In this document: positions 5,228-29,278 of the stretch, one piece after another | Numbering within the stretch: the stretch's first letter is position 1 | Layout: each line of letters begins with the position of its first letter | NCBI GenBank assembly: GCA_003696645.1 | Contig: RFGN01000738.1 | Location: forward strand, 1-34,628 | Direction: 5' to 3' | Source of the DNA: Gammaproteobacteria bacterium | GTDB taxonomy: Bacteria; Pseudomonadota; Gammaproteobacteria; J025 | Length of the DNA stretch: 34,628 bases | Made by a program: the position numbers and the translations under genes | Notes under the pieces: model-generated | What the model was told of the DNA's origin: nothing | What the model saw: only the letters and a program-made list of their open reading frames with translations | Databases searched by the model: none

Positions 5228-5367
5228 CCACATGCCGCGCTCGTTCTTAGCTATTTAACATTAGAAAATCTGGATAATAATATCACACTATTTCCCTAAT
5301 AATCTATTTTGCATGGCATTACAGTATTTACGCAAATGGGTTAATTTCACTACCATTTCACCATTCT

Positions 5368-10455: not shown

Positions 10456-11460
10456 TCAACGGCGACGCAGAGCAGCCAGACCTCCCAGACCCAGCAAGCA
10501 GAGGGATGCCGGTTCGGGCACGGCAGCGGCCGGGGGCGGCGTGCCGGCGTTCCAGTTCCCCAAAACAATATTGAGGTCCGCGATACCTACGAACGCATCA
10601 CCAGAAGGATCCGCCGCTGCAGGAGCCGGGGGCACGTTCAGATTCCAGGCACCAAGGATCAGGTTAAGGTCACTGATACCAACGAACCCGTCGTTGTCCA
10701 GATCACCATCCAGAGAGCCGGGATTCAGCGTCACGTCAAGCTGAACATTGTCGACCAATGCACGGCCCACCGGCGGGTCCGCCCCCATCAGGATCATCAG
10801 ACGAACCGTGGAATACGGTGCGGTCGCGGTCAACGAGTCGGAAAGCTCATTGGGGCCACCCGATGTTCGGTCGGTTCCTCCGAGGTTTGTCGCGCTGGCG
10901 CCGGTCAACTCGGTAATGGTGGTATCGTCGAAAACGAGGAAGGTACGGAAATCCGCAGAGGTCGATTGATCGCTGCCCGCCAGGTAGGAAACATCAAACA
11001 CATCGCCCGCGGAACCGGCAACGGCATAGGCGTCGGAGACCACCGCGACTTCACCGGCGTTCGTAAACGCCTGACCACCGGGAGCATCCGGGTCGTCAAA
11101 ACCGTACAAACCGTCGATCCCGAAAGCGCCGTTACCTGCGTCAGCAAATGTACGGTAGACCGTCCACCCGTCAATCACCACGCCGACGCCATCGGTGATG
11201 GTCGTAAAATCGGCCAGATCATTAGGCGCTCCGTACTGATAAATGTCATACATCACACGGGGGCGTTCCGGGATGTAAATCGGAACGTCGAAACGGTTGA
11301 CCAGACTGGTCTCATTAATACTGGTGACTTCGAATTCACCATTTCCCAGACCAATGCCGGCCGTGATCAGTGTATCCGCCTGCGTGACGTTCGAGGTCAT
11401 CATGACCGCAGGCACCGCCAAACATAACAGGGACCATTTTCTCATTCGGGAAACCTCCAT
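10456..11460 (-). CDS. PEP-CTERM sorting-domain protein with a two-repeat dockerin-like module
   Basis: 334-aa ORF with a signal peptide (KWSLLCLAVPAVMMTSNVTQA). The C-terminal VPEPASLCLLGLGGLAALRRR (nt 10459-10521) has the three PEP-CTERM elements: a PEP motif, a TM helix and an Arg cluster. About 220 aa of the N-terminal domain is shared with the adjacent paralogue. Confidence 0.85.
   Translation of the reverse strand: MEVSRMRKWSLLCLAVPAVMMTSNVTQADTLITAGIGLGNGEFEVTSINETSLVNRFDVPIYIPERPRVMYDIYQYGAPNDLADFTTITDGVGVVIDGWTVYRTFADAGNGAFGIDGLYGFDDPDAPGGQAFTNAGEVAVVSDAYAVAGSAGDVFDVSYLAGSDQSTSADFRTFLVFDDTTITELTGASATNLGGTDRTSGGPNELSDSLTATAPYSTVRLMILMGADPPVGRALVDNVQLDVTLNPGSLDGDLDNDGFVGISDLNLILGAWNLNVPPAPAAADPSGDAFVGIADLNIVLGNWNAGTPPPAAAVPEPASLCLLGLGGLAALRRR
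10522..10725 (-). other. Dockerin-like module (two Ca-loop/helix repeats) inserted before the PEP-CTERM signal
   Basis: This 68-aa segment reads NPGSLDGDLDNDGFVGISDLNLILGAWN...DPSGDAFVGIADLNIVLGNWNAGTPPPAAA. It contains two copies of a D-x-[DS]-x-D-[GA]-F-V-G-I-x-D-L-N-x-x-L-G-x-W-N pattern. The segment is absent from the paralogue at 11638..12432. Confidence 0.7.
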
Positions 11461-11637: not shown

Positions 11638-12432
11638 TCAACGACGCCGAAGCATCGCCAGCCCTCCCAGCCCCAACAAGGCCAAAGAAGCGGGTTCAGG
11701 GACGAGGGTCACATCCATCTGAACATTGTCCACCAATGCCCGGTTCAGCGCCCCGCCGGCATTACCGGTGATCATCAGGCGAACGGTCGAATATGCCGCA
11801 GGAGCCACAAGCGTATCGGAAAGCTCATTGGGGCCGCCAGCGGTGCGATCCGTACCGCCAAGGTTATCCGCCGCAGCGCCAGCCAGTTCGATGATCGTGG
11901 TGTCATCAAAAACCAGGTATGCACGGAAATCAACCACGGAACTTTGATCGCTGCCGGCCAGGAACGACACGTCGAATTGATCACCGGCGGAACCTGTCAC
12001 GGCGTATGCATCCGACACCACCGCGATTTCACCCGCGTTGGCGAAAGCCTGCCCGCCGGGGGTCGATCCGAACGGGCCGGGCGCGAATCCGTAGAGACCG
12101 TCGACGCCGAAGGCCCCGTTGCTCGAGGTGTAATGCGACCGGTAGATGGTCCAGCCGTCAATCTTCACCCCGATCCCGTCGGTGATGGTAGAGAAATCTG
12201 CCAAATCGGTCGGCGCCCCAAAATTAGCGGAGTCGGTCATGGCCCGGGGCCGATTCAAGGCGATGATGGGTGAACTGAGTGTGTTGACCAGTGAAACCTG
12301 TGACGCGTCCGTAACATGGAACTCCCCGTTACCCGACCCGAGATTGGGCCCGATCAGAGTAGCCGCGTCGCTGGTGTTCAAGGTCACCATCAGAGCGGGG
12401 GCTGCCAACAACATTGCGGTCAAACTTTTCAT
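11638..12432 (-). CDS. PEP-CTERM sorting-domain protein (paralogue without dockerin)
   Basis: 264-aa ORF with a signal peptide (MKSLTAMLLAAPALMVTLNTSDA). The C-terminal signal is VPEPASLALLGLGGLAMLRRR (nt 11641-11703). A long block is conserved with 10456..11460: GQAFxNAGExAVVSDAYAVxGSAGDxFDVSxLAGSDQS...FLVFDDTTIxEL...NLGGTDRTxGGPNELSD...YSTVRLMI. Confidence 0.85.
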   Translation of the reverse strand: MKSLTAMLLAAPALMVTLNTSDAATLIGPNLGSGNGEFHVTDASQVSLVNTLSSPIIALNRPRAMTDSANFGAPTDLADFSTITDGIGVKIDGWTIYRSHYTSSNGAFGVDGLYGFAPGPFGSTPGGQAFANAGEIAVVSDAYAVTGSAGDQFDVSFLAGSDQSSVVDFRAYLVFDDTTIIELAGAAADNLGGTDRTAGGPNELSDTLVAPAAYSTVRLMITGNAGGALNRALVDNVQMDVTLVPEPASLALLGLGGLAMLRRR

Positions 12433-12558: not shown

Positions 12559-12569
12559 GTTAATTTAAC
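12559..12569. promoter_or_regulatory. Perfect palindrome GTTAA-T-TTAAC
   Basis: Read directly. It lies about 130 bp upstream of the PEP-CTERM gene start at 12432 and is preceded by CTA, as in CTAGTTAA at 5216-5223. Confidence 0.45.
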
Positions 12570-12661: not shown

Positions 12662-12672
12662 GTTAAATTAAC
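12662..12672. promoter_or_regulatory. Perfect palindrome GTTAA-A-TTAAC
   Basis: Read directly. This is the second copy in the same spacer, 103 bp from the first, and is followed by an extra ATTTAAC half-site at 12675-12681. Confidence 0.45.
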
Positions 12673-12807: not shown

Positions 12808-15219
12808 TTATTCGATCATCCAAGGCTGGATCGGATATCGGAGATAGGCCGTTGCCTGGTCGTAACGACCACCCGTTGAGGGTGTATCACGGTACCGCTG
12901 GTAGAGGGCTGAACGATACGTGTCGGGGTTCGGAGGATGGGGCCGGTAGACACTTTGATACAGGCCTACTTTGTCAAGATCACAGGCCCGAAACCCGGGG
13001 ATCGGCTGAAATCCGGGTTTGAGACGGAAGTTCAGACGGGCCGGGTCGACAAAATCGTCCATGCTGATCTTCATGGGGGCGTTGTATTCAAACGTATCCG
13101 GCAGATCTTCCATGGTGGGCTTGATACGCGGTTGATCTTCCTCCAACAGACTCCAGTTCGGGTGGATATGGACTACCGCATAAGGGTCGTCTTCCCGAAC
13201 TTGATCGCTGTAGTTATTCAACATCGACCCGTAACTCTGCGCAAAGGGATTCTCATTCATATATCGAGCAAAGACGGGGAAGGCTTCGCTCCAGGGCGGT
13301 CTGTTCCAGCCTTGCGGGCCAACGACCTGCTCCACGTTATAGATCACGTCTTCTTTGCCCCCTCGAGGATAACGCCCACTCTCAAAGTGACGGGCAATCT
13401 CATCAAAAGCGGCCTTGACCTGTTCGGGGGTGCTGGGCATATGCGAAGTCCACCAGATCAATGGGCAATCCAACACGATATTGTCCCGGATGTGGCTGTT
13501 CGGCCCGCCGAACGCGATCGCACCACGCCCGGTCTTGTAAAAAATATTGCTCTGGTAAGTTGTCCCGGTTCCCCCATCATCATTGCGCGCCGCCATCACG
13601 GGATAGCGCGTCGGCTCCTCCATCATGTGATGGAAGAAGTTGTTCTCAACACGGTTACCGTTGCAAAACTTACTGGCCCCCTGGTAGAGCACATTCCAGT
13701 CACCCATCTCCCAACCCACATTGAAGAATTCGTTGTTGACAAAGTCGATGTAAGCGCCCGAGTAAGTGATGCCGGCGTTGGTGTCGTGATAAATGTTGTT
13801 GGTAAACCGGATCCCGCATCCGCTCAACCCGACCCCGCCGTATCCTCTTAAACGGATATGATGAAAATCGCAGTTCTCGATGTAATGATCCGCCCGGATC
13901 AGGTTTCGCAGATCACCCCCATCGATGGTCAAGGCGTTATGCAGGTTGTAGAAATCACAAGCGTTGAAGCCGTGTCGGCTACCTCCCACGACCCGAGCCC
14001 CTCGGCCTATGAAATTGCGAAATATACATGAAGCGATTGTGACGTCGTTACCACCTTCGATCGACAGGCCCAACTCGCCTCCCCCCTCGAAGATGAACCC
14101 ACGCAGGATGATGTGCTGCGCATCCTGAATGCGCACCATGACCGGGCCTCCAGGGATCATGATCCGGGCCTGCTCGATGTCAGGATCGATCGGCCAGAGA
14201 TAGAGCTTCTGCTCTTTCCGGTCGTAATACCACTCACCGGGCATGTCGAGCTCACACAAGATATTTTCAAAATAGAGTCGGCGATTCGGCGCGAATTTCG
14301 GCTTATCATTAGGGTTGGCAAAACCACCACGGTAGCGAACGCCCCCGATACCGTAGCGCGTGGAATCCAGCAGCTGAATCACACCGTCCTGACTGACGCG
14401 TGCAACCTGATTCGCGTCTTTGGTCCAATCGGTGCTGAGATACCCATCCTGCCGAATATCCTGCGTGCGTTGCAGTTCGCGACCCCACGCAGCAAAGTCC
14501 GTTTTTTCCACGGTCGTAAACTTGCCGCCTATCGGTTTATCAAAACTATATTCAGGCTCTTTTTCACCCGCCTTCAACCACCGCAGTGTCGGCCCCATAT
14601 CGATAACCTTGTCCAGGTGCACAAAGCCCCTGTTGGGCCAACGAGCCAACTGCAGGGTGTATTCGTTCCAAGTCAGCATGCCATATTTCCCGTGCCCACC
14701 CGAAAACGCACCTGCAATGAGCTGATCTTGAGACGTTTGAGACGTTTCAGACCCTCCCGGGAATGCTTTCGCCATGGACGTGCCCGCCAGATCAGCCACT
14801 ATGACGTGACCTCGCGCCTTGGGATTCAAATAAGTTAATTCCCGGCTATCAGGCTCTCGAAACAAGTCCGTGGGGACACGGACGCCGGTGGTAAGAATGA
14901 CCTGCTCACCCTCAGCCACGCGATAGGTGATCGGGGCGTTGGCACTGCCGCTGTCCTCCGGCCCCAGCACCAACGGGCCCTCCATACGATATTCACCCGC
15001 ATGTACGATTACCGTGTGAGATTCTTGACGATCCGGGTTCTGTTGGCGATAGCGCCGGATAGCATCCCGAGCCTGACTCAATGATGAAAAGGGCTGTTCT
15101 TGCGTACCGAGTTGATCCGGGCTACCTGCCGGAGAAACATGCCACTGCCCGGCCAACGCCCCCGTGATGCATACAGATACCACCAATAACGAAGCAACTA
15201 AGCGTCCGAGCCTGCCCAT
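12808..15219 (-). CDS. Secreted right-handed parallel beta-helix repeat protein (paralogue of 2596..4827)
   Basis: The ORF track gives 12808..15240 with a TTG start. I prefer the ATG at 15219 (MGRLGRLVASLLVVSVCITGALAG), which is preceded by GGAGG 7 nt upstream. The mature start is WHVSPAGSPDQLGTQEQPFSSLSQARDAIRRY. PbH1-like repeats are present: NDVTIASCIFRNFIGRGARVVGG, HYIENCDFHHIRLRGYGGVGLSG and GIRFTNNIYHDTNAGITYSG. Confidence 0.75.
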   Translation of the reverse strand: MGRLGRLVASLLVVSVCITGALAGQWHVSPAGSPDQLGTQEQPFSSLSQARDAIRRYRQQNPDRQESHTVIVHAGEYRMEGPLVLGPEDSGSANAPITYRVAEGEQVILTTGVRVPTDLFREPDSRELTYLNPKARGHVIVADLAGTSMAKAFPGGSETSQTSQDQLIAGAFSGGHGKYGMLTWNEYTLQLARWPNRGFVHLDKVIDMGPTLRWLKAGEKEPEYSFDKPIGGKFTTVEKTDFAAWGRELQRTQDIRQDGYLSTDWTKDANQVARVSQDGVIQLLDSTRYGIGGVRYRGGFANPNDKPKFAPNRRLYFENILCELDMPGEWYYDRKEQKLYLWPIDPDIEQARIMIPGGPVMVRIQDAQHIILRGFIFEGGGELGLSIEGGNDVTIASCIFRNFIGRGARVVGGSRHGFNACDFYNLHNALTIDGGDLRNLIRADHYIENCDFHHIRLRGYGGVGLSGCGIRFTNNIYHDTNAGITYSGAYIDFVNNEFFNVGWEMGDWNVLYQGASKFCNGNRVENNFFHHMMEEPTRYPVMAARNDDGGTGTTYQSNIFYKTGRGAIAFGGPNSHIRDNIVLDCPLIWWTSHMPSTPEQVKAAFDEIARHFESGRYPRGGKEDVIYNVEQVVGPQGWNRPPWSEAFPVFARYMNENPFAQSYGSMLNNYSDQVREDDPYAVVHIHPNWSLLEEDQPRIKPTMEDLPDTFEYNAPMKISMDDFVDPARLNFRLKPGFQPIPGFRACDLDKVGLYQSVYRPHPPNPDTYRSALYQRYRDTPSTGGRYDQATAYLRYPIQPWMIE

Positions 15220-15259
15220 GTCATGCCTCCATCCAAACAAGCAGCGGAAGTGAAATCAT

Positions 15260-15276
15260 AAAGTTAATTTAACTTT
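15260..15276. promoter_or_regulatory. Perfect 17-bp palindrome AAAGTTAA-T-TTAACTTT
   Basis: Read directly. It lies 41 bp upstream of the preferred ATG (15219) of the beta-helix gene. It is the longest instance of the GTTAA-N-TTAAC family. Confidence 0.5.
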
Positions 15277-15600
15277 TATATTACACATTTTACATTTCCC
15301 CGCAAGGCCGAACTTTGATAAACTATGCTCATGAGCCGTGAAACATAGCGAACGGACAGTGTTGACGAGAAGGCGCCGCAGCCACACTATGTATTAAAAG
15401 TTTTATTTCAATGGTTTATATATCTCAAAACAACTCAGCTGCTTTGTTGGCAATTCCAATCTGTCCGTTCGTTACCGCCAACAAGACTTTTCCAGGGATG
15501 CCGGGCAATTAGTTAAAATCAGTTAATTTATAGCGGTTCATGGCCGGACTCTTCACATACTCTGATACATGAGATCCCCTTAACACCATACCCAACTGTC

Positions 15601-16404
15601 ATGCTCACATTTCCAGACCAACTCAATCGCATACGCGACCGGATGAAAAGCCAGGAAGGCCTGCTGCATAAAGTGGCGGGGCATTACGCAGACGCCATCG
15701 AAGCCGGCGGACTGATCCACATGTACGCTAACGGTCATTCCTTGATGACGGTGGCCGAGACGGTGGTACGGATGGGTGCATTGACCGGCTTTCACCCCGT
15801 CATTGCGGACGGGCTGACTTCGTTTATCGACGTGGTAGGTTCCAATGGGATCCGCGTCTGCCAGCACTTCGAAAAGTACGAAAGTATCGGGGGAAAGCTA
15901 CTCGACGAAATCGACTTCGGGCCGAAGGATGTGATGGTATTCATATCAGCGACCGGCCAAACGCAGGCGGCTGTGGATATCGCAATCGAATTCAACCGCC
16001 GTTATCCCGATCTACCCCTTGTAGTCATTGCCTCTCTCGAACAATCCCGAGGCGCAACGCCCAAGCATAGCTCGGGCAAAACACTGTATCACGTGGCTAA
16101 AGAGGCGCGTCTGGGCTATCACATTGATAACGGAATGCCGACAGGTGACCTGTCAGTACACGTTAAGGGTAATACCGGCAATTATTCGATCTGCCCGTTG
16201 TCATCGATCGGCGCGTTTTGCGTAACCCATTGCCTGAACGAGCTGACCCTACGTGAACTTGATCGGCGTGGCATCCCCCCCACCGTACTTCAGAACATGC
16301 ATCTGGGGGAGACAGGCGTTAACTACGAAGCTTGGGTCCGCGATCAGCGTCGTCGTTACGCCCGATGCATGCATAACCCGGATGCGGTCAAGCCGAATCT
16401 TTAA
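15601..16404 (+). CDS. SIS-domain protein (UPF0309-like single-SIS sugar-phosphate isomerase/binding family)
   Basis: 267-aa ORF. The N-terminal helix followed by GGLIHMYANGHSLMTVAETVVRMGALTGFHPV matches the pattern I recall for UPF0309/SIS_2 proteins (GG.IH.FG.GHS...E...RAGGL....I). The nucleotide-binding-like segment VMVFISATGQT is also present. Confidence 0.65.
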   Translation: MLTFPDQLNRIRDRMKSQEGLLHKVAGHYADAIEAGGLIHMYANGHSLMTVAETVVRMGALTGFHPVIADGLTSFIDVVGSNGIRVCQHFEKYESIGGKLLDEIDFGPKDVMVFISATGQTQAAVDIAIEFNRRYPDLPLVVIASLEQSRGATPKHSSGKTLYHVAKEARLGYHIDNGMPTGDLSVHVKGNTGNYSICPLSSIGAFCVTHCLNELTLRELDRRGIPPTVLQNMHLGETGVNYEAWVRDQRRRYARCMHNPDAVKPNL

Positions 16405-16418
16405 TCATACGTATAACC

Positions 16419-17204
16419 ATGACCACGCCCACCTGCCTAATTACCGCCTCGACCGGAATCGGCGCAGAAACCGCCAAAATTCTGGCGTCGAGGGGAACCC
16501 ACGTATTTGTGATGAGTCGGACCGAGTCGAATCTGCATACACTCGCCCAGGAGATACGGAATGCTGGCGGCCAATGCGATTATGCTGTCGCGGATGTGAC
16601 ACGGGGCGATATGGTTGAAGCCGCGGTTGAGCAATGCCTGAATATAACTGGTCGAATCGACGCGCTGTTCAACGTGGCGGGGATCAGTGGCAGCAAGTAC
16701 TGCGACGGGCCCATCCATGCCTGTACGGAATCGGGGTGGGATAAGGTGATGAGTATCAACGTCAAGGGCATGTTTCTGGTCTGTCGAGCCGTGCTGAAAC
16801 AGATGCTGGAACAAGAGCCTGATTCATATGGTATACGCGGGTCTATTTTGAACATGTCCAGTGTGCTGGGGATCTCGCCGATGCCGGCACACTTTGTCAC
16901 GCATGGCTATGCCGCCAGCAAAGGAGCCATCATCTCCATGAGCCGATCAATGGCAGGGTATTACGCCCGGCACAAGATCCGTGTCAATGTCATCGCTCCG
17001 GGACTGACCGAAACTCCCATGGCGGGGCGGGCAGTACAAAACGAGACAATTTGCGACGCGATGAAAAACAAGCAACCGCTGACTGAAGGTGTAATGGACA
17101 CGTCATCGGTCGCCGAATCGGCGGCATTCCTGCTTTCTCACGAGTCACGTGCGATTACGGGAGACGTATTGATAGTGGACGGTGGCTGGTGCGTAATGGG
17201 CTGA
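16419..17204 (+). CDS. Short-chain dehydrogenase/reductase (classical SDR)
   Basis: 261-aa ORF. It has the cofactor motif LITASTGIGAETA, the NVAG motif and the catalytic YAASKGAI (YxxxK) motif. A 14-nt gap separates it from the SIS gene. Confidence 0.85.
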   Translation: MTTPTCLITASTGIGAETAKILASRGTHVFVMSRTESNLHTLAQEIRNAGGQCDYAVADVTRGDMVEAAVEQCLNITGRIDALFNVAGISGSKYCDGPIHACTESGWDKVMSINVKGMFLVCRAVLKQMLEQEPDSYGIRGSILNMSSVLGISPMPAHFVTHGYAASKGAIISMSRSMAGYYARHKIRVNVIAPGLTETPMAGRAVQNETICDAMKNKQPLTEGVMDTSSVAESAAFLLSHESRAITGDVLIVDGGWCVMG

Positions 17205-17244
17205 CTGCCTGCTGAAACATAATCCAGGAGCAAGTTGTCAAGTA

Positions 17245-18576
17245 ATGTGGAAGTCAAGTAAAGCTATTCCTGATCTCGGACAATACGATGTCATAGTCGT
17301 TGGAAGCGGATCGGCCGGAACACCCGCTGCTATAGCCGCCGCGAGAATGGGCAAAACAACCCTGCTGATCGAACGTTTACCCTTTCTTGGCGGGACAAGC
17401 ACGGCGGTGCTGGACACGTTCTACGGCTATTACATGCCCGGCAAGACTTCACGACGGATCATTGGGGGAATCGCCAACGATGTTTATGATGAGCTCCAAC
17501 GCCTAGATCGTGTTATTGAACGCCCGAATACTCATGGTGCGGGGACAGCGGTCACTTACCACCCGGAATACCTGAAGGTGGCATGGGAAAACCTGGCACG
17601 CCAGGCCGGCGTCAAAGTCATTCTTAATGGCTTTGTGCAGGATGTGATCGTTGATCAAGACCGCATAACTGGTCTGGTGCTGGCTACGATTGGGGGGTTG
17701 CGCACAGTAAAAGGCAGGGTTTTCGTGGATGCAACCGGCGACGCAAACCTGTGCCACTTTGCGGGCTTCGAGTATGAACTTGCAGGCGAACTTGAACCGG
17801 CCCAGACACTGACAACCACTTTCAAGATGGTCAATGTCGATGTGACCAAGCGAAAGACATTGAGCAAGGAAGCATTTCATTCACTCATGGCGGAGGCGGC
17901 GGATAGCGGGCGGTACCGCCTGCCACGACGCGAAGGCAGCGACCATATCACGCCTGTCGACCATATGACAGCTACCATCATGACCCGGCTGGATTCATAT
18001 CAGAAACAGGCGGACGGCAGCATTATCAATGCGTCCGATCCCTGCTATCTGTCACAGGCAGAACAGGCGGGGCGTCTTCAAGCCATCGAATACATTCGTT
18101 TCCTGCGTGATATGGTGCCGGGGTATGAACATGCCCAACTGGCTACGCTTGGGACAACCATCGGCGTCAGAGAAACACGGCGAGTCTACGGCGAATACCG
18201 ATTGACACGCGATGATGTCTTGCAGGCCAGACAATTCGATGACCAGATCGGCTTGTGCGGCGCTCCGATCGAAGATCACCACGGCGGCACCGATACCCGA
18301 TGGGTATACCTTCCTGAAGGTCAATGTGTTGGTATTCCGTACCGAACCCTGATCCCGAAAGGCTCAGAGAATCTCTTTGTTGCGGGCCGATGTTTCTCGG
18401 CAACGCATGACGCCCACGCGTCGGTTCGATCGATGGGTCAATGCATGGTCATGGGGCAAGCGGCTGGCACCGCGGCCGCGATGTGTGCTGATCAACATAT
18501 CACGCCCTTGGAAATCAATACGGATAGACTTCGCCACATCCTCCTTGATCAAGGCGCCGTCCTGGAGCTTTCCTGA
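17245..18576 (+). CDS. FAD-dependent oxidoreductase (PF12831-like)
   Basis: 443-aa ORF. It has the dinucleotide-binding motif YDVIVVGSGSAGTPAAIAAARMG..LLIER...GGT and a C-terminal GRCFSATHDAHASVRSMGQCMVMGQAAG block typical of this family. AGGAG lies upstream of the ATG. Confidence 0.75.
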   Translation: MWKSSKAIPDLGQYDVIVVGSGSAGTPAAIAAARMGKTTLLIERLPFLGGTSTAVLDTFYGYYMPGKTSRRIIGGIANDVYDELQRLDRVIERPNTHGAGTAVTYHPEYLKVAWENLARQAGVKVILNGFVQDVIVDQDRITGLVLATIGGLRTVKGRVFVDATGDANLCHFAGFEYELAGELEPAQTLTTTFKMVNVDVTKRKTLSKEAFHSLMAEAADSGRYRLPRREGSDHITPVDHMTATIMTRLDSYQKQADGSIINASDPCYLSQAEQAGRLQAIEYIRFLRDMVPGYEHAQLATLGTTIGVRETRRVYGEYRLTRDDVLQARQFDDQIGLCGAPIEDHHGGTDTRWVYLPEGQCVGIPYRTLIPKGSENLFVAGRCFSATHDAHASVRSMGQCMVMGQAAGTAAAMCADQHITPLEINTDRLRHILLDQGAVLELS

Positions 18577-19538
18577 TGGGAACTTATGCCATTGGAATCG
18601 ATATCGGCGGAACGCGGATGAAATGCGGAGCGGTATCCCCCTCGGGCAAGATACTGGCTCAACATGTCGTTCCGTCTAATGCATCCAGAGGAACACGCGG
18701 GCTGCTGAAGGGTATCGCCGAGACGGTCAACGAGTTTGAAAGACGATTGGGCAAGCCCGCCGGCATCGGCTTGGGTTTATCCGGCGTGGTGGACCCGGAG
18801 TTCGGCGTCCGATACCTGCCGGGGAAGTTCAAAGGACTGGAAGGCTTTGACATAGTCCCCCGTCTGAGAAAGAGGCTGGGTGTCCCGGTGTGGGCGGACA
18901 ACGACGGGCTTTTGGCCATGTTAGCCGAACACCGGTTCGGACAGGCGAAACAAGTGAAATGGGCAGCCACCCTGACCATCGGAACCGGTGTCGGGTCGGG
19001 GGTCATCCTTGACGGACGGATCCTACGAGAGCCTTCGTTTCTGTTTGGTACTCAGATCGGACATTGTGTGCTTCAGAACTATGGCGGCAAATATTGTCTG
19101 ACGACGGCCCGGGGTACCGCCGAAACGCTGTGCTCCTGTACCGCGCTGGCGCTTTCCGTCCGTGACGGGCTGCAACGGGGTATCCCTTCAATACTGACGG
19201 ACCTGTACTGGAAGGACGCTCACGCCATTGACTTCAAGAAGGTGATAGAAGGGGTCCGCAAGAAAGATAAGCTCTGTCTGGATGAATTCGACCGTTGGGT
19301 TCACAACCTCGGATGCCTGCTAGTCACCGTTACCCACGCATACACGCCACAGATGATTATCCTGAGTGGCGGCGGGGCCAATGCGGCCGACCTGTACCTG
19401 ACGCGGTTAAAAAAACACATTCACCATAACACGTTCCGTTATCCCCCTGACCGACGTATCCGACTGGTCACATCGCGCCTGGCAGATATGGCCGGTGTGC
19501 TGGGGGGAGCAGCTCATGTATGGAGCCGGCTGTCATGA
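18576..19538 (+). CDS. ROK-family sugar kinase with a degenerate zinc motif
   Basis: 320-aa ORF. It has the ATP-binding start YAIGIDIGGTRMKCG and the ROK signature LTIGTGVGSGVILDGRIL...GTQIGH. The canonical CxCGxxGCxE motif reads CLTTARGTAE here, so two Cys are replaced by Thr. Its start overlaps the preceding stop (TGATG). Confidence 0.75.
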   Translation: MGTYAIGIDIGGTRMKCGAVSPSGKILAQHVVPSNASRGTRGLLKGIAETVNEFERRLGKPAGIGLGLSGVVDPEFGVRYLPGKFKGLEGFDIVPRLRKRLGVPVWADNDGLLAMLAEHRFGQAKQVKWAATLTIGTGVGSGVILDGRILREPSFLFGTQIGHCVLQNYGGKYCLTTARGTAETLCSCTALALSVRDGLQRGIPSILTDLYWKDAHAIDFKKVIEGVRKKDKLCLDEFDRWVHNLGCLLVTVTHAYTPQMIILSGGGANAADLYLTRLKKHIHHNTFRYPPDRRIRLVTSRLADMAGVLGGAAHVWSRLS

Positions 19539-20491
19539 GTTTCATACGTACAGTTCTGGGGGATATTTCTCCCGACAATCTGGGGGTGTGTTATGCCCAT
19601 GAGCACATCATCATCGATCCGAGCTATACCACCCAATTATTTCCGGATTTTCTTCTTGATGACGTGCAACTCGCGATACAGGAATTAAGGCAATTCCATA
19701 CTGACGGCGGGCGAGCCATGGTGGATTCGATGCCGTGTGACAGCGGGCGAAACGTCCTCAAGCTTGCTGAAATCAGCCGAGAAACCTGCGTGCATATTCT
19801 CTGTCCGACCGGATACCACCTGAAAAAATACTATCCGACAGGTTCATGGGGCACCCGGCTTTCAGCAACCGAACTAGCAAAAGTTTTTATCGCCGATATT
19901 GAAGATGGAATAGACAGGCATGATTACGGCGGACCCATATGTGAGCGTACGCAACACAAAGCGGGGCTGATCAAGATCGCCAGTGGATTGAACCGACTGG
20001 ATGATCACGAGCTACGACTGTTCGAGGCCGCCGCCATCACCCATCTTCAGACCGGGGCCCCCATCCTGACCCATACGGAAAAAGGTACCGCGGCGCTGGA
20101 GCAGATTGATGTGCTTGGCAGACATGGTGTGAAACCTGATCGAGTCGTACTTTCGCACACCGATCGCAAGCCGGACCCGGCATACCATAAGGAGATCCTC
20201 AGCACAGGCGTTTTTGTGGAATATGACGCCCACTTCCGGTGGAAAGACTGCGATGGCAATCCCACCCTTGACTTGGTCCTTTCGATGGCCGAGGCAGGCC
20301 ATATAGACCAGATCATGCTGGGCATGGACGCTGCCCGACGATCTTATTGGAAAGCATACGGGGGATCGCCGGGGTTGAGTTACCTGCTGACTGAGTTTTC
20401 GAGCAATCTGCGGGAGGCCGGTCTTTCAGGCCATGACCTGAACCGGATTTTTATCGAAAACCCGGCACGAGCTTACCAATTTCAAGCCTGA
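19535..20491 (+). CDS. Phosphotriesterase-related (PTE/Php family) amidohydrolase, probable lactonase
   Basis: The ORF track starts at 19520. I prefer the ATG at 19535 (MSFIRT), which forms an ATGA overlap with the ROK stop. All binuclear-metal ligand contexts are present: YAHEHI (HxH), GLIKIASG (bridging Lys), PILTHTE, VVLSHTD and MLGMDAA (Asp). Confidence 0.8.
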   Translation: MSFIRTVLGDISPDNLGVCYAHEHIIIDPSYTTQLFPDFLLDDVQLAIQELRQFHTDGGRAMVDSMPCDSGRNVLKLAEISRETCVHILCPTGYHLKKYYPTGSWGTRLSATELAKVFIADIEDGIDRHDYGGPICERTQHKAGLIKIASGLNRLDDHELRLFEAAAITHLQTGAPILTHTEKGTAALEQIDVLGRHGVKPDRVVLSHTDRKPDPAYHKEILSTGVFVEYDAHFRWKDCDGNPTLDLVLSMAEAGHIDQIMLGMDAARRSYWKAYGGSPGLSYLLTEFSSNLREAGLSGHDLNRIFIENPARAYQFQA

Positions 20492-20514: not shown

Positions 20515-21561
20515 TCATTTCACCTTGGGTAGATCGCCCGGAATCAACGTCGGGGCGATTCGGATCCGAACTGGTGGTGCATCCGGATGTTCAATGCGGT
20601 AGAGCAGAGCATTAACCGCCCGGGCGCCGATTTCTTCGGCATGGATATCAATAACCGTTGGCTTGATGTCGAGCTGCTCGAGGTATTCCGGCTCGTTATT
20701 ACAGGTTACAAACGCTACCTGTTTCATGACATCCTTGCCTTGACGTCGCCACTCGGCATTGAGTCGCGCGGTTAACGCGTCGGCGGGGGACATAAACGCG
20801 GTCGGTCGGTCTTTGGCTTCCGCAAACTGTCTAGCGAGAGATGACAGGATCCGCTCACTTTCCGGATTACCGAAACGCGCGTGCCCGTGAAAGTTATGCC
20901 CTTCGAGAGTCATCACCCGTCCCCCCCCGGCTTCAAACACCTTGATAAAAGCGTCATGACGCTGCACATAGACCGGGTGTGCGGTATCGACAATAAAAGC
21001 TGCATGACGGTGCCCGTGTTCCAAGAAAAACTCTGCAGCAAGTCGGCCGACCTCTTCAGAATCCGCATTGATGTGATCCACACCCGGTACCGGCATCCCG
21101 AACACCGGGATGGTCGGCAGCCGTTTGAAACTACGAGACATCCGATCCGCATAGGCCTGATAACCCGGAGCAATACAGCCACGCACCGATTCCGTAATCC
21201 CGTAGTCGATCTCACCGGATTCTTTGGAAATCTTGTAGAGAACGGTTCGCATCCCGCGCTTGGTAAGCTCGGATTCGACGCCGTGGACAAAATCGCTGTA
21301 AAGGGGTGTCCGCCAGAAACGTCCCCCCTCACTCTTGAACGTGATGAGCACATCCCCCATCAACCCGTTGGCGTCGGGCTTCATGGATCGACCACGGCTT
21401 TTAGACTTACGTCGTTTGGGCGTATAGTTCAGTTCTTTCATCGCGCGTTCAACCGCTGCGATGGTTTTGCTCGATGCACGCGCCTTGTTGTTGATGATCA
21501 ACGAGACGGTGGCGATCGAAACGCCAGCCCGTTCAGCAACGTCCTTGAGTTTTGCTGCCAT
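20515..21561 (-). CDS. LacI-family transcriptional regulator with an unusually basic hinge
   Basis: 348-aa ORF. It has the N-terminal HTH KLKDVAERAGVSIATVSLIINNK and a C-terminal periplasmic-binding-protein-like sugar-sensor domain. The hinge region reads PKRRKSKSRGRSMKP (nt 21376-21420). Confidence 0.85.
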   Translation of the reverse strand: MAAKLKDVAERAGVSIATVSLIINNKARASSKTIAAVERAMKELNYTPKRRKSKSRGRSMKPDANGLMGDVLITFKSEGGRFWRTPLYSDFVHGVESELTKRGMRTVLYKISKESGEIDYGITESVRGCIAPGYQAYADRMSRSFKRLPTIPVFGMPVPGVDHINADSEEVGRLAAEFFLEHGHRHAAFIVDTAHPVYVQRHDAFIKVFEAGGGRVMTLEGHNFHGHARFGNPESERILSSLARQFAEAKDRPTAFMSPADALTARLNAEWRRQGKDVMKQVAFVTCNNEPEYLEQLDIKPTVIDIHAEEIGARAVNALLYRIEHPDAPPVRIRIAPTLIPGDLPKVK

Positions 21562-21818: not shown

Positions 21819-22694
21819 TTATTCTTTCACGCCGCCAAGCTGGATCCCTTTGATGAAGTAACGCTGAAGGAAAGGATACAGCAACAGCATCGGGAGGATT
21901 GTGATCACCACGGTCGCGGCCTTGATCGTGTCGGGGGTGTAAGCCAGCAGGTCAGGGTTGGGTATGCCCTTCTCGATCATCTCTACACTGTCATCAATCA
22001 CAATACGCTGGAGAAAAGTCTGCATGACCTGTTTTGAGTTGCTGGTGATATAAAGCATGGCATCAAGCCACATGTTCCAATGCAGGACAGCCGTCCACAG
22101 CCCCACGGTGGCAAGCACTGGCTTGGAAAGCGGGATAAATATCTGGAACAACACCCGAAACTCGCTAGCCCCGTCGATCCGAGCCGCCTCGGCCATGCTG
22201 TTCGGGACACGCTCGAAGAAGTTCTTGACCACGATCACATTGAATCCGGTCAACATCACAGGGAGGATGTAAACCAGCCGGTTATCAATCAGCCCGATCC
22301 CTTTGATCAGCAGATAGGTCGGCACAATACCGCCCGAAAACAACATGGTAAAAATCACAAGAAACGTGAGCGCTTTACGGTGCGGCATGTGTGCCCGCGA
22401 TAATGGATACGCACACAGACAGGTCATGATCAGGGTAGCGATCGTCCCGAATACAGTCCGAAGGATGGTGTTGAAATAGCCCGTCAGGATTTCTGGATTC
22501 CCGAACACCATGCGGTAGGCGGTCAGGGTGATATCTCGTGGGTAGAGGTTCAGCCCTCCGCGAGCCGCCTCCGCAGCCGTACTCACGGACAGCACCACCA
22601 TGTAAACAAACGGGTAGATCGCCATCATCCCAATCAAGGCCAGGATCAGGTAATTGACGGCCTGAAATATTTTCTCACCGGGAGACATCCGCAT
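21819..22694 (-). CDS. Carbohydrate ABC transporter permease (LplC/YtcP-like, CUT1 family)
   Basis: 291-aa ORF with six predicted TM segments. It has the EAA-loop context AEAARIDGASEFRVLFQIFIPLSKP. Confidence 0.85.
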   Translation of the reverse strand: MRMSPGEKIFQAVNYLILALIGMMAIYPFVYMVVLSVSTAAEAARGGLNLYPRDITLTAYRMVFGNPEILTGYFNTILRTVFGTIATLIMTCLCAYPLSRAHMPHRKALTFLVIFTMLFSGGIVPTYLLIKGIGLIDNRLVYILPVMLTGFNVIVVKNFFERVPNSMAEAARIDGASEFRVLFQIFIPLSKPVLATVGLWTAVLHWNMWLDAMLYITSNSKQVMQTFLQRIVIDDSVEMIEKGIPNPDLLAYTPDTIKAATVVITILPMLLLYPFLQRYFIKGIQLGGVKE

Positions 22695-22749
22695 GGTTCA
22701 ATCTCTCTTAATCATGGCCGATCGAGGAACGGTATCCAGCCACGCCTAA

Positions 22750-23673
22750 TTACCACACCCCCTGCTCACCCCCGGAAACCCGGCGGGCCACCCAGTTGGC
22801 GGAGATAATCAGTATCAAACCCACGGTGGATTTGAACATCCCCGCCGCGGTCGACAGCCCGAAATCCATGGTCATCAGGCGACGGATGACGTAGGTATCG
22901 ATAATATCACTAACGTCATAGACACTCGGGTTGTAGAGGTTGTAGACCTGATCAAAACCCGCACTGAGAATGTAACCCACCTGAAGAATCGCCAGCACAA
23001 TAATTGTCGGGACTAAGCACGGCAGCGTGACATGCCACATCGAATGCCATTTCCCAGCCCCATCCACAGTGGCAGCTTCGTATAGGGACGGGTTGATGCC
23101 CGCAAGGGCAGCCAGGTAGATCACCGCAGCGTACCCGGCAGCGTGCCAGATCCCAGTCAGGATCAGCATCACGATGAACCATACATCGTGGCTCAAGAAA
23201 AGAATCGGCCCAATCCCGAACAGCCCCAACAGGTAATTGATCGGACCGGTACTAGTCAAGAGTATCTGTAGAATCCCGCCTAATACCACCCAGGAAAAGA
23301 AGTAAGGCAGATACGTCGCGGTCTGAACTGCTCTAGAGAACCACCGCGACCGGACTTCATTCAGCAGCAGCGCCAGAACTATGGGGGCAACAAAACCAAT
23401 CGTCATTCGTAACGAGCTGATGATCAGGGTGTTTCGAAGCGCCCGCGGGAAATCCTCACTGCTGAAAAGGCGCACGAAGTGATCCCATCCGACCCAGGGA
23501 CTTTTGAGAATGCCTAACGACAACCGGTAGTCTTTGAATGCGACAATCAGCCCCATCATGGGGATATAGTTGAAGACCAGGAGTGTCGCCGCACAGGGTA
23601 AAAACATCAGGAGCAGGTCGCGGTTGCCCCGATACTGTTTCAGCCAAGAAGTTCCTTGCCGATGGTATCTCAT
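22750..23673 (-). CDS. Carbohydrate ABC transporter permease (LplB/YteP-like, CUT1 family)
   Basis: 307-aa ORF. It has the N-terminal LLLMFLPCAATLLVFNYIPMMGLIVAFKDY typical of LplB-type permeases and the EAA loop YEAATVDGAGKWHSMWHVTLP. Its start forms an ATGA overlap with the upstream SBP stop. Confidence 0.85.
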   Translation of the reverse strand: MRYHRQGTSWLKQYRGNRDLLLMFLPCAATLLVFNYIPMMGLIVAFKDYRLSLGILKSPWVGWDHFVRLFSSEDFPRALRNTLIISSLRMTIGFVAPIVLALLLNEVRSRWFSRAVQTATYLPYFFSWVVLGGILQILLTSTGPINYLLGLFGIGPILFLSHDVWFIVMLILTGIWHAAGYAAVIYLAALAGINPSLYEAATVDGAGKWHSMWHVTLPCLVPTIIVLAILQVGYILSAGFDQVYNLYNPSVYDVSDIIDTYVIRRLMTMDFGLSTAAGMFKSTVGLILIISANWVARRVSGGEQGVW

Positions 23674-25400
23674 CCGCCCCCCCTCACTTCCTGGTAGAGG
23701 CGGTCCCTGACCTGCAACAGTTCATTGGCTTCCTCCGTCAGGATGCGGCCGCCGCGATCAAGCCATCGGGCGGTGAACTGTTCGAAGGCTTCGATTGGCA
23801 CCTTGCCACAGATAACATCGGTGTAAAACGTCAACTGCATGTTCTGAAGATCTGACAGATAGATGGGGGCGGAGGGGACAATGTCCGGCTTACCCAACGC
23901 GTCGACCATCAGCTTGTCTTTGGGCTGGTACTTGGATCGATGCTGTTTTTCTTCTTCGGAATACAAGAGTTCTTCATAAAGCGGACATTCCGGCCGCCAG
24001 ATCGTCAGCACCTCTCGTTCCCAGACGTTCTGATCGGTATAGGGTTCAAGCAACCGAATACCGCCGGCGTACTCACGGGTCGGGTCGATGAAATCCCAAT
24101 GCTTTCCTCGTTCACCATGACGATGACGGATATAGACTTCGGGACCGTTTGCAACAAAATACTCCATCATTTTTAGCGCGCGGATCACGATTTCGGGTTT
24201 CTCGGCCACACTCGTACCGAAAACAATGATATTGGCGGCACTCCCCCAGTTCCGACAACCACTATCACCGTAAGGCCCGACCGGGAATGAGCCGACGGCA
24301 ATCTCGGCGTCCGGGTTCAGCTGCGCCATCATCGGCTTGAGGGCGTTAGGATTCATCTCCCATTCGAAGTCGAGGTAACGCCCCAGTTGAGAGATGTAGC
24401 CGACCCGCCCGTTGATAAATTTGCTCCGTTCCTGGTTTCGGGTCATGCCATCGGTGACGAATTCCGGATCGATAATGCCTTCTTCGTACCACTCAGCCAA
24501 CATTTCAAGGGCTTCTTTAGCTCTAGGCGTGATTCCGCCCCAAACGATCCGCTTGCGTCCGTCTTCCTCGAGTTCCATCCAGTCGAACGGCAGTACGCCA
24601 TATGCCCCAAAGAATTCGGAGAACGTGATGTGCCAGGCTTGGGCGTTGCCGCTCATGCCGTAGGTATCGTCCCGCCCGTTACCATCCGGATCGTCATACG
24701 TGAACCGCCGCAGTGCCTCATGAAACTCCTCAAGGGTCTGCGGAATTCTTTCGATCCCGACGTTACGAAGCCAATCCACACGCCAGACCCCCGGGTTGGG
24801 ATACCCGCCGTCGATCCAGAGTGTTGGGATCCCCCAGTTTTCGCCGTAGGCATTAGCAAACAGCCACCCATTGGGATCGGTATCACTGATCATCTTGAAA
24901 TAAACGGGTGCGTGTTTTCGTATCAGCCAACGCGGTACGGGCACGATGACGCCGTGATGCGCATCGCTACGGGCGTGGGCCGGATTACCTTCAAAGATCA
25001 CGTGAGGGATATCGCCCCCAGCAAGCATCAGGGGTTTTCTACGTTCATACCCTTGGGCATCCATGAAAATCGGCTTGAGATCGATATTGATGATCTCCTC
25101 AATGATCCGTTCACCAAATGCCCCCTCCACGCCATTGGGAAATCTCGGCAGAGGCATCCACGAAATCACGAGACGCTCGCTCGGATCGTCTTCGACCTGC
25201 GACCAGTCGATGTAGGTTTTTTCAATGATCGCCTGGTTTGCCTGCTCAGGCGTCAACGCCGCACGGTAGACAGCGTAACCACAGGCTAATACACCGCCCC
25301 CCATCACGATGACTATCCAGAATATCAGGCCTGCTGTTTTCATACTCAAGCTTCTGGCGCGATTCGCCGAGCCAACAAGTCGTGTCGAAGCGGCCCGCAT
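23670..25400 (-). CDS. Large extracellular solute-binding lipoprotein (LplA/YtcQ-like) of the ABC importer
   Basis: 576-aa ORF. It has a hydrophobic leader with a lipobox-like GVLAC. The size and the position ahead of LplB/LplC-type permeases fit this family. An alternative ATG at 25343 (MKTAGLIF) is possible. Confidence 0.75.
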   Translation of the reverse strand: MRAASTRLVGSANRARSLSMKTAGLIFWIVIVMGGGVLACGYAVYRAALTPEQANQAIIEKTYIDWSQVEDDPSERLVISWMPLPRFPNGVEGAFGERIIEEIINIDLKPIFMDAQGYERRKPLMLAGGDIPHVIFEGNPAHARSDAHHGVIVPVPRWLIRKHAPVYFKMISDTDPNGWLFANAYGENWGIPTLWIDGGYPNPGVWRVDWLRNVGIERIPQTLEEFHEALRRFTYDDPDGNGRDDTYGMSGNAQAWHITFSEFFGAYGVLPFDWMELEEDGRKRIVWGGITPRAKEALEMLAEWYEEGIIDPEFVTDGMTRNQERSKFINGRVGYISQLGRYLDFEWEMNPNALKPMMAQLNPDAEIAVGSFPVGPYGDSGCRNWGSAANIIVFGTSVAEKPEIVIRALKMMEYFVANGPEVYIRHRHGERGKHWDFIDPTREYAGGIRLLEPYTDQNVWEREVLTIWRPECPLYEELLYSEEEKQHRSKYQPKDKLMVDALGKPDIVPSAPIYLSDLQNMQLTFYTDVICGKVPIEAFEQFTARWLDRGGRILTEEANELLQVRDRLYQEVRGGG

Positions 25401-25488: not shown

Positions 25489-26250
25489 TCACCGAATCGC
25501 ATCCCACTTTGAATCGTTGAAGTCGTTCAGGTTGTTATCTTTGGCGTTTTCAAAGAGCACGTCGAATGGTGTCTGTTCGACGTGCCCATCACAGAACACT
25601 TGATTTACTTTGCTCTTATGGGCTGCCATACGATTCGGATTTCGGTAAGCGGTTGCGGCAGCGACACGCCCTACGTTGATCCAACCGTTCACCCCACCAT
25701 CGATGTGATAATCAACAATCAGGATCGTATCGGAAGGCATGGTAACCTCAGGAACGGTCAATGACTTGAACTTCCAAGGCCCGGTCGCGTAGCCGTATTG
25801 CGAGCCGCAGATTCCCGGCGCAGCGGGTGTCTCTTTGCCGTAGTTGTCTGCTAAAGAATTCATCGCATAACTGAGAATGCTTTGCCGGTCATTTCGAATG
25901 ATAACCCGTTCCACCTCGTCTGAAGGGCAGGCGTATAACTCCTGATTTCCGCCGTAGACCGCGCCGTTCTGCATCTGAATCTCTCCCCTGCCGTCATAGG
26001 CGGGCAGCCGATTATTGAAGGTGTCATACTTACCATACGGGAGCATCTGCTCGGAATCTTCGGCATAAGTGAGACTCGCGATCGCGATCTGTCGCATATT
26101 GGATTTACATACCGACGACTTAGCCGCTTCCCGAGCTGCCCCCAAGGCGGGCAACAGAATCCCCACCAACAGGGCGATAATGCTGATGACAACAAGCAAT
26201 TCAATAAGAGTAAACCCCCATCGAGCCGAACGTTTTACATTTTTTAACAT
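25489..26250 (-). CDS. Prepilin-type N-terminal cleavage/methylation protein with H-X9-DG motif (DUF1559-like pseudopilin-like protein)
   Basis: 253-aa ORF. It has the class III signal [28 protein letters not shown]. The C-terminal [12 protein letters not shown] (nt 25585-25620) is an exact H-X9-DG motif. Confidence 0.85.
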
Positions 26251-27750: not shown

Positions 27751-27801
27751 GTCGCCTCGTTTATAATTGAATCTGGACTAAATACTATCCTGAATACACT
27801 T

Positions 27802-28956: not shown

Positions 28957-28966
28957 CGGCTGCCCC

Positions 28967-29278
28967 TTATTTCAACGGGCTAAGTTCGGTGGGCGAAAGA
29001 AAGACGGCTTCCTGAGTGACGTAGTGTTGTCGACACTCCTCCAGGTATTCAGCAAAACCCGGATGCTTGAGCAGTGCTTGGCGCGCTTCCTGTCGGTGGT
29101 TCAGATCCTTGAATGCCCAAAGGGTATAAATCTGGTTACAAGTTCCTGACTCACCGACCCACTGGCCGACCATGCCAAAATAGGGTTCCAACATCGCCCG
29201 GCCTCGTTCCCGCCACATCTGTAAAACCTTATTAACGCTTCCGGGCTTGCAGGTATAGATCCGCAGTTCGTAGATCAC
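28967..29278 (-). CDS. NIPSNAP-family protein (dimeric alpha/beta-barrel fold)
   Basis: 103-aa ORF with a GTG start that forms a GTGA overlap with the upstream SDR stop. The start IYELRIYTCKPG and the internal block IYTLWAFKDLNHRQEAR are typical NIPSNAP features. Confidence 0.7.
   Translation of the reverse strand: MIYELRIYTCKPGSVNKVLQMWRERGRAMLEPYFGMVGQWVGESGTCNQIYTLWAFKDLNHRQEARQALLKHPGFAEYLEECRQHYVTQEAVFLSPTELSPLK

Follow-up and report, generated by a model that had tools for sequence, protein, structure and literature searches.

Results

A compact five-gene cassette

The 34,628-nt contig RFGN01000738.1 was analysed over its whole length (the window). Our subject is a group of five adjacent genes on its forward strand, here called the cassette. 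The genes encode, in order, a SIS protein of the SIS_2/UPF0309 type (15601–16404; 267 amino acids, aa), a short-chain dehydrogenase/reductase (SDR; 16419–17204; 261 aa), an FAD oxidoreductase of family PF12831 (the flavoenzyme; 17245–18576; 443 aa), a ROK kinase (18576–19538; 320 aa) and a hydrolase of the phosphotriesterase (PTE) family (19535–20491; 318 aa). The first four were delimited from a list of open reading frames (ORFs) together with Pfam; for the PTE gene, the longest ORF begins at 19520. An earlier note on this DNA had named the five families and described the genes as tightly packed. Pfam and NCBIfam profile searches returned the same families, and the junctions, which we read directly, were as described: a gap of 14 nt, a gap of 40 nt, a TGATG stop/start overlap at 18574–18578 and, between the kinase and PTE genes, an ATGA overlap. 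The latter is obtained when the PTE start is set at 19535. This start gives the N-terminus MSFIRTVLGDI, as in homologues, and a second contig with the same sequence, whose genes were called independently, has it too (318 aa).

Across the five genes, no promoter-like or terminator-like signals were found above chance. A single strand, short gaps or overlaps and the lack of internal signals are, as a reading of the sequence, all consistent with a single unit. On the 5' side of the cassette lies a divergent intergenic region of 360 bp (15241–15600), the presumed promoter/operator site, where scoring gave no sigma-70-like site. No N-terminus among the five resembles a signal peptide, and the enzymes are predicted to be cytoplasmic. 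No protein of the cassette reached an NCBIfam equivalog cut-off. NagS, glucokinase, allose kinase, phospho-furanose lactonase and glucose 1-dehydrogenase were rejected as direct assignments, all of them falling below the curated cut-offs.

Conservation of the cassette across phyla

An analysis of gene neighbourhoods, of the kind proposed in the earlier note, showed that the gene set is co-conserved: the cassette is kept in at least six phyla, with rearranged gene order and with differing flanks and regulators. Homologues of the PTE-like protein were found in Planctomycetota, Gemmatimonadota, Rhodothermales, Abditibacteriaceae, Verrucomicrobiota (Opitutales, Luteolibacter, Akkermansiaceae and Chthoniobacteraceae) and Acidobacteriota (Granulicella, Edaphobacter, Bryobacteraceae and Pyrinomonadaceae). 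They are 57–74% identical across phyla, which points to a distinct, conserved specificity of this clade. The nearest relatives of the cassette proteins come from metagenome-assembled genomes of Planctomycetota (PTE, 74% identity; SIS, up to 82%). Carriers in culture include Granulicella sp. dw_53, Edaphobacter aggregans DSM 19364, Chitinophaga polysaccharea and Planctomycete CA13.

The first three neighbourhoods examined contained the same partners in different orders and beside different regulators. We then have counts from 80 genome loci, seeded with the PTE homologue and searched with the five window proteins; 47 of them extended at least 6 kb upstream and at least 7 kb downstream. In this subset the PTE homologue was accompanied by the flavoenzyme in 46 loci, the SIS protein in 43, the SDR in 40 and the ROK kinase in 34, and all four partners were present in 30 of the 47. 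Counting loci beside a PTE homologue or a flavoenzyme, the same gene set is found at considerably more than a hundred independent loci. Elsewhere, the genes usually run SDR-kinase-SIS-FAD-(MetE-like-MBL)-PTE-(two GFO/IDH/MocA genes), with accessory genes in brackets.

The hydrolase position can be filled in two ways. Chitinophaga polysaccharea and Planctomycete CA13 carry SIS-SDR-FAD-ROK together with a creatininase-family protein (PF02633) and no PTE. Among 39 metagenome loci of at least 8 kb that were seeded with the flavoenzyme, 26 had a PTE, 10 had a creatininase and none had both, so that either hydrolase was present in 36. The creatininase-type order is (MFS sugar porter)-SIS-SDR-FAD-ROK-creatininase-(Eda). 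As the window has the order SIS-SDR-FAD-ROK-hydrolase, the hydrolase has been swapped in place. The kinase position is exchangeable as well: in eight related loci a full-length "prokaryotic ketohexokinase" of the pfkB type (Khk; PF25270, 1e-52) replaces ROK in the same slot. These in-place swaps, ROK for Khk and PTE for creatininase, are strong evidence that each slot represents one obligatory step of a single pathway. The five-gene set put forward in the earlier note recurs, while the conserved unit differs slightly from it: the constant core consists of the flavoenzyme, a binuclear-metal hydrolase and the SIS protein, usually with an SDR and a kinase; the kinase and the hydrolase are replaceable, and compact relatives add a sugar porter of the major facilitator superfamily (MFS) and an aldolase of the 2-keto-3-deoxy-6-phosphogluconate (KDPG) type. 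Both of these additional genes are absent from the window.

Transporters found with the cassette elsewhere are sugar-porter MFS proteins (XylE/GlcP-like; TIGR00879, 383 bits) or RhaT-like symporters, and point to a neutral monosaccharide as the substrate. At least three arrangements have the aldolase next to the cassette; with 186–217 bits it exceeds the eda cut-off of TIGR01182 (156), and its scores are far higher on KDPG than on KDPGal models. Edd was not met in the neighbour census, and none of the scanned window ORFs of at least 150 aa matched ILVD_EDD. Nor was a classical sugar-acid dehydratase seen in the compact MFS-SIS-SDR-FAD-ROK-creatininase-Eda layout. The census returned mostly GntR, AraC, GFO/IDH/MocA, MFS, RhaT, xylose-isomerase-like TIM and Eda proteins, none of which pinpoints the substrate. 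Five of the ten GntR regulators in the sampled neighbour set carried a UTRA domain. The xylose-isomerase-like TIM protein (AP_endonuc_2), present in nine loci, matched L-ribulose-5-phosphate 3-epimerase models with 35–38 bits against cut-offs of at least 200.

Several accessory genes accompany the cassette in part of its range. At least 30 Verrucomicrobial or Acidobacterial loci have a MetE-like protein (Meth_synt_2, short archaeal type) and a metallo-beta-lactamase-type (MBL) hydrolase inserted between the flavoenzyme and the PTE (for example L058, 7453–9400; L078, 6815–9960; L014, 7693–9990; L017, 12021–13900). The inserted MBL hydrolase matches L-ascorbate-6-phosphate lactonase weakly. Two GFO/IDH/MocA genes often follow on the 3' side of such cassettes, and a URO-D-like protein was seen in six loci. 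Links to methyl sugars or 3-keto-glycosides, suggested by the MetE-like, MBL, GFO and URO-D-like accessories, were considered and dropped; none of these genes is universal, and they were therefore kept out of the pathway model. In a few loci (L009, L011, L014, L057 and L076) the cassette has neighbours of the sialic-acid type, namely a BNR_2 sialidase, a lyase resembling DHDPS/NanA and a fusion transporter (NanM-SSF). Finally, a creatininase-type operon (L086) contains between SDR and flavoenzyme a 374-aa ORF (5000–6124) that has no Pfam or NCBIfam match.

The PTE-like hydrolase

The PTE-like protein matches Pfam PTE (2.5e-52) and is a cog1735 binuclear-metal hydrolase. Its best matches in the PDB, aligned end to end, were 3pnz (Lmo2620; 1.7e-54) and 3msr/3ovg (a Mycoplasma amidohydrolase; 2.7e-53). 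The earlier note had named Lmo2620 as a relevant relative and had judged the metal site intact. Both statements hold: 3pnz is among the best solved relatives, and the protein has all six metal ligands (H22, H24, K147, H180, H208 and D265), which do not vary among 84 homologues. Moreover, R235, K237, R268 and Y271 align to K242, K244, R275 and Y278 of Lmo2620, and are conserved in 84, 48, 83 and 84 of the 84 homologues, respectively. Because of the alignment with Lmo2620, the invariant metal ligands and the conserved phosphate-site positions, the protein is best read as an active hydrolase whose substrate is a cyclic ester that is anionic and probably phosphorylated. We predict a phospho-sugar lactonase. 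The closest characterised relatives act on pentono-1,4-lactone 5-phosphates; its profile score excludes the protein from the equivalogs of known phospho-furanose lactonases.

The SIS protein

The SIS protein has a single SIS_2 domain (Pfam, 1.9e-18) and barely passes the NCBIfam model for a UPF0309-type subfamily (NF002805; 135.8 bits versus a cut-off of 135). Its matches in the PDB were 3cvj (1.6e-14) and NagS, 9eol (3e-8; 36.9 bits). To our knowledge, NagS is the only UPF0309 SIS enzyme that has been characterised. NagS (SCO4393) is the GlcNAc-6-phosphate dehydratase of Streptomycetaceae, in which H53, R64, E94 and D179 are essential (PMC12680351). The alignment places H46, R57, E91 and D183 of the window protein at these positions. 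All four residues are at least 97% conserved in 69 cassette-linked SIS homologues that are otherwise 25–30% identical, and the phosphate-binding Ser positions of NagS are also kept. An invariant N-G-x-R motif is specific to the cassette SIS family and is additional to what is found in NagS. Orthologues of NagS have been defined by at least 58.7% identity and by nagS-dmdR1 synteny, and occur in Streptomycetaceae only (PMC12680351). The window protein falls outside this group, being a remote match in another neighbourhood, with no dmdR1 synteny. We predict that it is a sugar-phosphate enzyme and a candidate dehydratase or isomerase. It is likely to have its chemistry (ring opening, enolisation and elimination or isomerisation) in common with NagS, but not its substrate.

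The kinase and the two oxidoreductases

The ROK domain (Pfam, 6.9e-45) spans residues 6–314 of the 320-aa kinase, which has no helix-turn-helix or other DNA-binding domain. From this domain content the protein is read as a sugar kinase and not as a ROK repressor. It scored 133 bits on the ROK glucokinase subfamily (cut-off 260) and was below every equivalog cut-off; the nearest structures in the PDB are glucokinases and ManNAc kinases (about 1e-24 to 1e-21). The family of the alternative kinase, PF25270, is defined by haloarchaeal fructose 1-kinases (PMC11519228).

The SDR is of the classical type (Pfam adh_short_C2, 1.6e-55). It passed no NCBIfam cut-off, its best partial matches being to generic SDR, glucose 1-dehydrogenase and FabG models. 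At the level of profile and PDB matches, both the SDR and the ROK protein look generic.

The flavoenzyme is a full-length member of its family, matching PF12831 over profile positions 1–416 of 416 (1.8e-109; 367 bits versus a cut-off of 27). It has a GxGxxG motif at residues 20–25, with G20, G22 and G25 invariant, and many invariant Arg, His and Lys residues. The PDB searches gave no close solved structure. An AlphaFold2 (AF2) model with a pLDDT of 80, compared with the PDB by Foldseek, retrieved only a generic two-domain flavoprotein fold at TM scores of at most 0.46, from which function is not transferable. Some sources annotate the protein as 'glycine/D-amino acid oxidase-like'; its match to the DAO profile falls below the DAO cut-off. 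The wider family comprises 1580 clusters at 50% identity with E-values of 1e-30 or lower, and the cassette clade alone contains thousands of sequences. PF12831 flavoenzymes are frequent in glycan loci, and we know of essentially no biochemistry assigned to them.

The surroundings of the cassette in the window

As a whole, the window represents a region for glycan utilisation in a PVC-type (Planctomycetes–Verrucomicrobia–Chlamydiae) bacterium. Its glycan genes encode a GH95, a GH2 and two beta-helix proteins. The GH95 (287–2530) is very divergent, as is an 810-aa beta-helix protein (12808–15240) that gives a weak GH141_M signal. A pair of PEP-CTERM proteins, together with a DUF1559 protein whose N-terminus carries a methylation motif (10456–11460, 11638–12432 and 25489–26250), are hallmarks of the PVC group and agree with the Planctomycetota affinity of the cassette proteins.

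On the 3' side of the cassette, a LacI-family regulator gene (20515–21561, reverse strand; LacI and Peripla_BP_3 in Pfam) ends 23 nt past the PTE stop codon and is a candidate local regulator. Upstream of it, also on the reverse strand, are ABC importer genes (21819–25400) for two BPD_transp_1 permeases and a 576-aa putative solute-binding protein, which are candidates for local uptake. The solute-binding protein (23670–25400) matches SBP_bac_1 only at 3e-4 and has no NCBIfam match, and the two permeases are not accompanied by an ABC ATPase gene. The earlier note had the LacI regulator and the importer converge on the cassette. Strand and gene order bear this out; the association itself is specific to this genome. 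No LacI homologue lies beside the cassette in 85 related loci (L001–L085), a different LacI-type gene is found near it in L086, and the regulators beside it elsewhere are of the GntR/UTRA, DeoR, AraC, GntR-PBP and LacI types. Likewise, the GH95, beta-helix, GH2, LacI and ABC proteins of the window have no detectable counterparts beside the cassette in the 85 loci. This leads to the view that the cassette behaves as a portable monosaccharide module, inserted into various glycan loci under various regulators.

Chitinophaga and Planctomycete CA13, like the window, have a GH95 gene close to the cassette. The window GH95 had no match at 1e-15 even to the cassette-adjacent GH95 genes of L084 and L085. 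We rejected the neighbouring GH95 as a guide to the substrate because it is without a detectable counterpart beside the cassette in the 85 related loci.

The palindrome GTTAA-N-TTAAC is present in three exact copies, at 12559–12569, at 12662–12672 and, as GTTAATTTAAC, at 15263–15273 within the intergenic region 5' of the cassette; a copy with one mismatch lies at 5340–5350. All three exact copies are intergenic and beside glycan genes, and the chance expectation is 0.48 even with one mismatch. The palindrome is absent from 2.19 Mb of related loci, which rules it out as a conserved operator of the cassette. It could be the operator of a regulator specific to this genome.

A second catabolic cluster (26584–34483) contains two MR_MLE enolase-superfamily dehydratases, two SDRs, an MBL-fold hydrolase and an RraA-like aldolase, as well as a solute-binding protein and a regulator of the GntR/FCD type. 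By its families it looks like a non-phosphorylative pathway for a sugar acid or a deoxy-sugar of the fucose/rhamnose type.

Discussion

A model for the cassette

The cassette probably breaks down a sugar, and it matches no pathway that we found. With a confidence somewhat short of even, we favour the reading that the five genes together serve, in the cytoplasm, to catabolise a single neutral monosaccharide or a small family of such sugars. In the model, the ROK kinase would phosphorylate the neutral sugar. The sugar phosphate would then be processed by the UPF0309 SIS protein, the SDR and the PF12831 flavoenzyme. The SIS protein would open the ring and enolise the substrate; a 2,3-dehydration of the NagS type is its most likely contribution, and otherwise it would interconvert an aldose and a ketose. 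One oxidation would yield a phosphorylated lactone, which the PTE-like binuclear-metal hydrolase would open. The product would probably be KDPG, from which an Eda-type aldolase encoded outside the window would release pyruvate and glyceraldehyde 3-phosphate. Four parts of the model are inferred: what the substrate is, in which order the SDR, the flavoenzyme and the SIS protein react, what the second redox enzyme does, and that KDPG is formed. The families and their co-conservation support the interpretation given in the earlier note, and its phosphorylative oxidative route is still a proposal.

Since the compact creatininase-type layout showed no classical sugar-acid dehydratase, an enzyme of the cassette must create the 3-deoxy-2-keto function of KDPG. 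By analogy with NagS, the SIS protein is the obvious candidate. In a more specific version of the model, the cassette would convert a neutral hexose to KDPG by an undescribed route in which Zwf, Pgl and Edd are bypassed. Here, the SIS protein would dehydrate a hexose 6-phosphate to a 3-deoxy-2-ulose phosphate, the flavoenzyme and/or the SDR would oxidise this to a 2-keto-3-deoxy phospho-lactone, and the PTE or creatininase would open the lactone. Taken in this full detail we consider the version unlikely. If true, it would provide the first physiological reactions for the PF12831 clade, for UPF0309 proteins outside Streptomyces and for a creatininase in sugar metabolism.

Several points weigh against the catabolic model or its details. 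A route from hexose to KDPG needs one net oxidation, which leaves either the SDR or the flavoenzyme unexplained. Eda is adjacent in a minority of loci only (about 14 of about 120) and is not found in the window. The distal-phosphate site of Lmo2620 is taken here to consist of K242, K244, R275 and Y278, as reportedly described by Xiang et al. 2012. On the phospho-furanose lactonase model NF045706, the PTE-like protein scores 221.7 bits, far below the cut-off of 630. Creatininase-family enzymes are known as amide hydrolases and not as lactonases, so the step common to the two hydrolases could be the hydrolysis of an amide or of another ester. The SIS protein has Q and H at the positions of S91 and N228, the two NagS residues that contact GlcNAc. 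Lastly, NagS homologues of about 30% identity lack GlcNAc-6-phosphate dehydratase activity (PMC12680351).

Other explanations

The exchange of PTE for creatininase would be explained directly if the common step were the cleavage of an amide, as in a route for N-acetylhexosamines. ROK would phosphorylate GlcNAc or ManNAc, the NagS-like SIS protein would dehydrate the product to a 2,3-unsaturated acetamido sugar phosphate, and the PTE or creatininase would remove the acyl group, oxidation then leading to KDPG, acetate and ammonia. In addition to the amidase nature of creatininases, this fits the retention of all four residues essential in NagS, the presence of ManNAc kinases among the best structural matches of ROK, the UTRA domain in half of the sampled GntR regulators (the amino-sugar regulators NagR and DasR are of the GntR/UTRA type) and the sialidase, NanA-like lyase and NanM-SSF transporter beside the cassette in a few loci. 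However, the sialic-acid genes occur in about four loci only, the transporters are neutral-sugar porters, and NagA, NagB and GH20 lie outside the 25 commonest families of the neighbour census. The PTE-like protein is closest to phospho-lactonases and keeps their phosphate site, S91 and N228 of NagS are replaced, and distant NagS homologues are inactive on GlcNAc-6-phosphate (PMC12680351). We regard this route as improbable.

We are equally sceptical of a route modelled on erythritol catabolism, with a polyol phosphate or a ketose phosphate as intermediate, even though each family would then carry out its most typical chemistry. The kinase would make a polyol or ketose phosphate, the flavoenzyme would oxidise it as do GlpD and EryB, the SIS protein would convert ketose phosphate to aldose phosphate, the SDR would oxidise C1, and the PTE would open the phospho-lactone; the resulting phospho-aldonate would feed into the pentose-phosphate or Entner–Doudoroff (ED) pathway. 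A ketohexokinase-type kinase can indeed occupy the kinase slot, and the pentonolactone phosphates used by the closest characterised PTE relatives are substrates of the kind expected. Against this, PF12831 is distinct from the DAO/GlpD family, and a separate dehydratase would be needed before Eda, none being linked. ROK kinases generally act on ring-form sugars, and polyol kinases are usually of the FGGY type.

It is very unlikely that the lactone comes first, as in the Ula pathway. An imported lactone (ascorbate-like or an aldonolactone) would be phosphorylated by the kinase instead of by a phosphotransferase system (PTS), the PTE would open the ring as UlaG does, and the SIS, SDR and FAD enzymes would rearrange the keto-acid phosphate. 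PTE-type lactonases of Listeria and Mycoplasma presumably replace UlaG in Ula-like operons, and the extended Verrucomicrobial and Acidobacterial cassettes insert the MBL hydrolase with its weak match to L-ascorbate-6-phosphate lactonase. Yet the recurrent neighbour families include no UlaD-like decarboxylase and no epimerase of the UlaE/UlaF type, the AP_endonuc_2 protein of nine loci matching epimerase models weakly. Moreover, the transporters are porters for neutral sugars, and ROK kinases are not known to act on lactones.

Deglycation of Amadori compounds (fructosamines) would require a kinase and a SIS deglycase like FrlD and FrlB, aided by a flavin amadoriase. A pfkB or ROK kinase next to a SIS protein follows the known logic of fructoselysine degradation, the GntR/UTRA regulators resemble FrlR, and the 'glycine/D-amino acid oxidase-like' label of the flavoenzyme points the same way. 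But a single-domain UPF0309 SIS protein is unlike FrlB, PF12831 is not the amadoriase (DAO) family and its DAO match is under the cut-off, no amino-acid or opine transporters are linked, and the PTE, SDR and Eda would be left without a role, all of which makes this highly improbable. That five unrelated genes are packed together by chance is barely conceivable: no promoter was scored upstream, but at least six phyla share the set, with gene order and flanks varying, start and stop codons overlap, and internal promoter or terminator signals are not above chance.

Significance of the cassette and comparison with known systems

Returning to the catabolic cassette for a neutral monosaccharide, the earlier note had offered the locus as a candidate new pathway. 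Searches of NCBIfam, the PDB and the literature revealed no clear orthologues in a characterised pathway: no equivalog cut-off was reached, and the PDB matches were remote or generic. Literature searches across 8 million full texts returned nothing on this gene set, the NagS paper (PMC12680351) covering a distant relative of the SIS protein only. The proposal of a new pathway has thus withstood these searches. The cassette likely contains new enzyme activities for the PF12831 and UPF0309 proteins. It is common in the main phyla that degrade glycans in soil and water (Acidobacteriota, Verrucomicrobiota, Planctomycetota, Gemmatimonadota and Bacteroidota/Rhodothermota). As few members of these groups have been cultured, metabolic models of them would gain from its solution a pathway for a carbon source that they now lack, and the PTE-type phospho-lactonases would gain a physiological substrate. 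As the members of each swapped pair (PTE/creatininase and ROK/Khk) must share a substrate, the cassette offers built-in controls, which makes the problem unusually tractable for enzyme screening.

Individual components have recognisable counterparts. The window SIS protein and NagS share the UPF0309/SIS_2 family, the four essential residues and the phosphate-binding serines; they differ in that the similarity is remote, S91 and N228 are replaced, the N-G-x-R motif is added and dmdR1 synteny is lacking. The haloarchaeal ketohexokinase (PF25270, pfkB superfamily; PMC11519228) has its counterpart in the kinase slot of eight relatives, whereas the window carries ROK. With Lmo2620 (3pnz), Bh0225 and MS53_0025 of Mycoplasma synoviae (3msr/3ovg), the window PTE has in common full-length similarity, the six metal ligands and the basic and Tyr residues of the phosphate site. 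Unlike these cog1735 lactonases, it is far under the equivalog cut-off, and its setting is one of kinase, flavoenzyme, SIS and SDR partners in PVC bacteria, Acidobacteria and other phyla. The characterised lactonases presumably sit in PTS/Ula-like operons of Firmicutes and Mollicutes.

Two known pathways resemble the cassette as a whole. The ED and oxidative pentose-phosphate pathways likewise have a kinase, a dehydrogenase and a lactonase, and an Eda-type KDPG aldolase accompanies relatives of the cassette. In contrast to them, the cassette has no homologues of Zwf, Pgl or Edd, and its lactonase is of the PTE/creatininase type. It further differs from the ED pathway in that the flavoenzyme and the SIS protein are obligatory partners and in that it is regulated and sited as glycan-utilisation regions are. 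The Ula/Sga pathway for L-ascorbate has the hydrolysis of a phosphorylated lactone as its committed step, as the cassette would have, and a UlaG-like MBL protein is inserted in some relatives. The cassette, however, has neither a PTS nor UlaD, phosphorylation would be by a soluble kinase, and the only UlaE-like signal is the weak match of the AP_endonuc_2 protein. The cassette thus resembles a phosphorylative oxidative route in the style of ED or Ula and is a member of neither.

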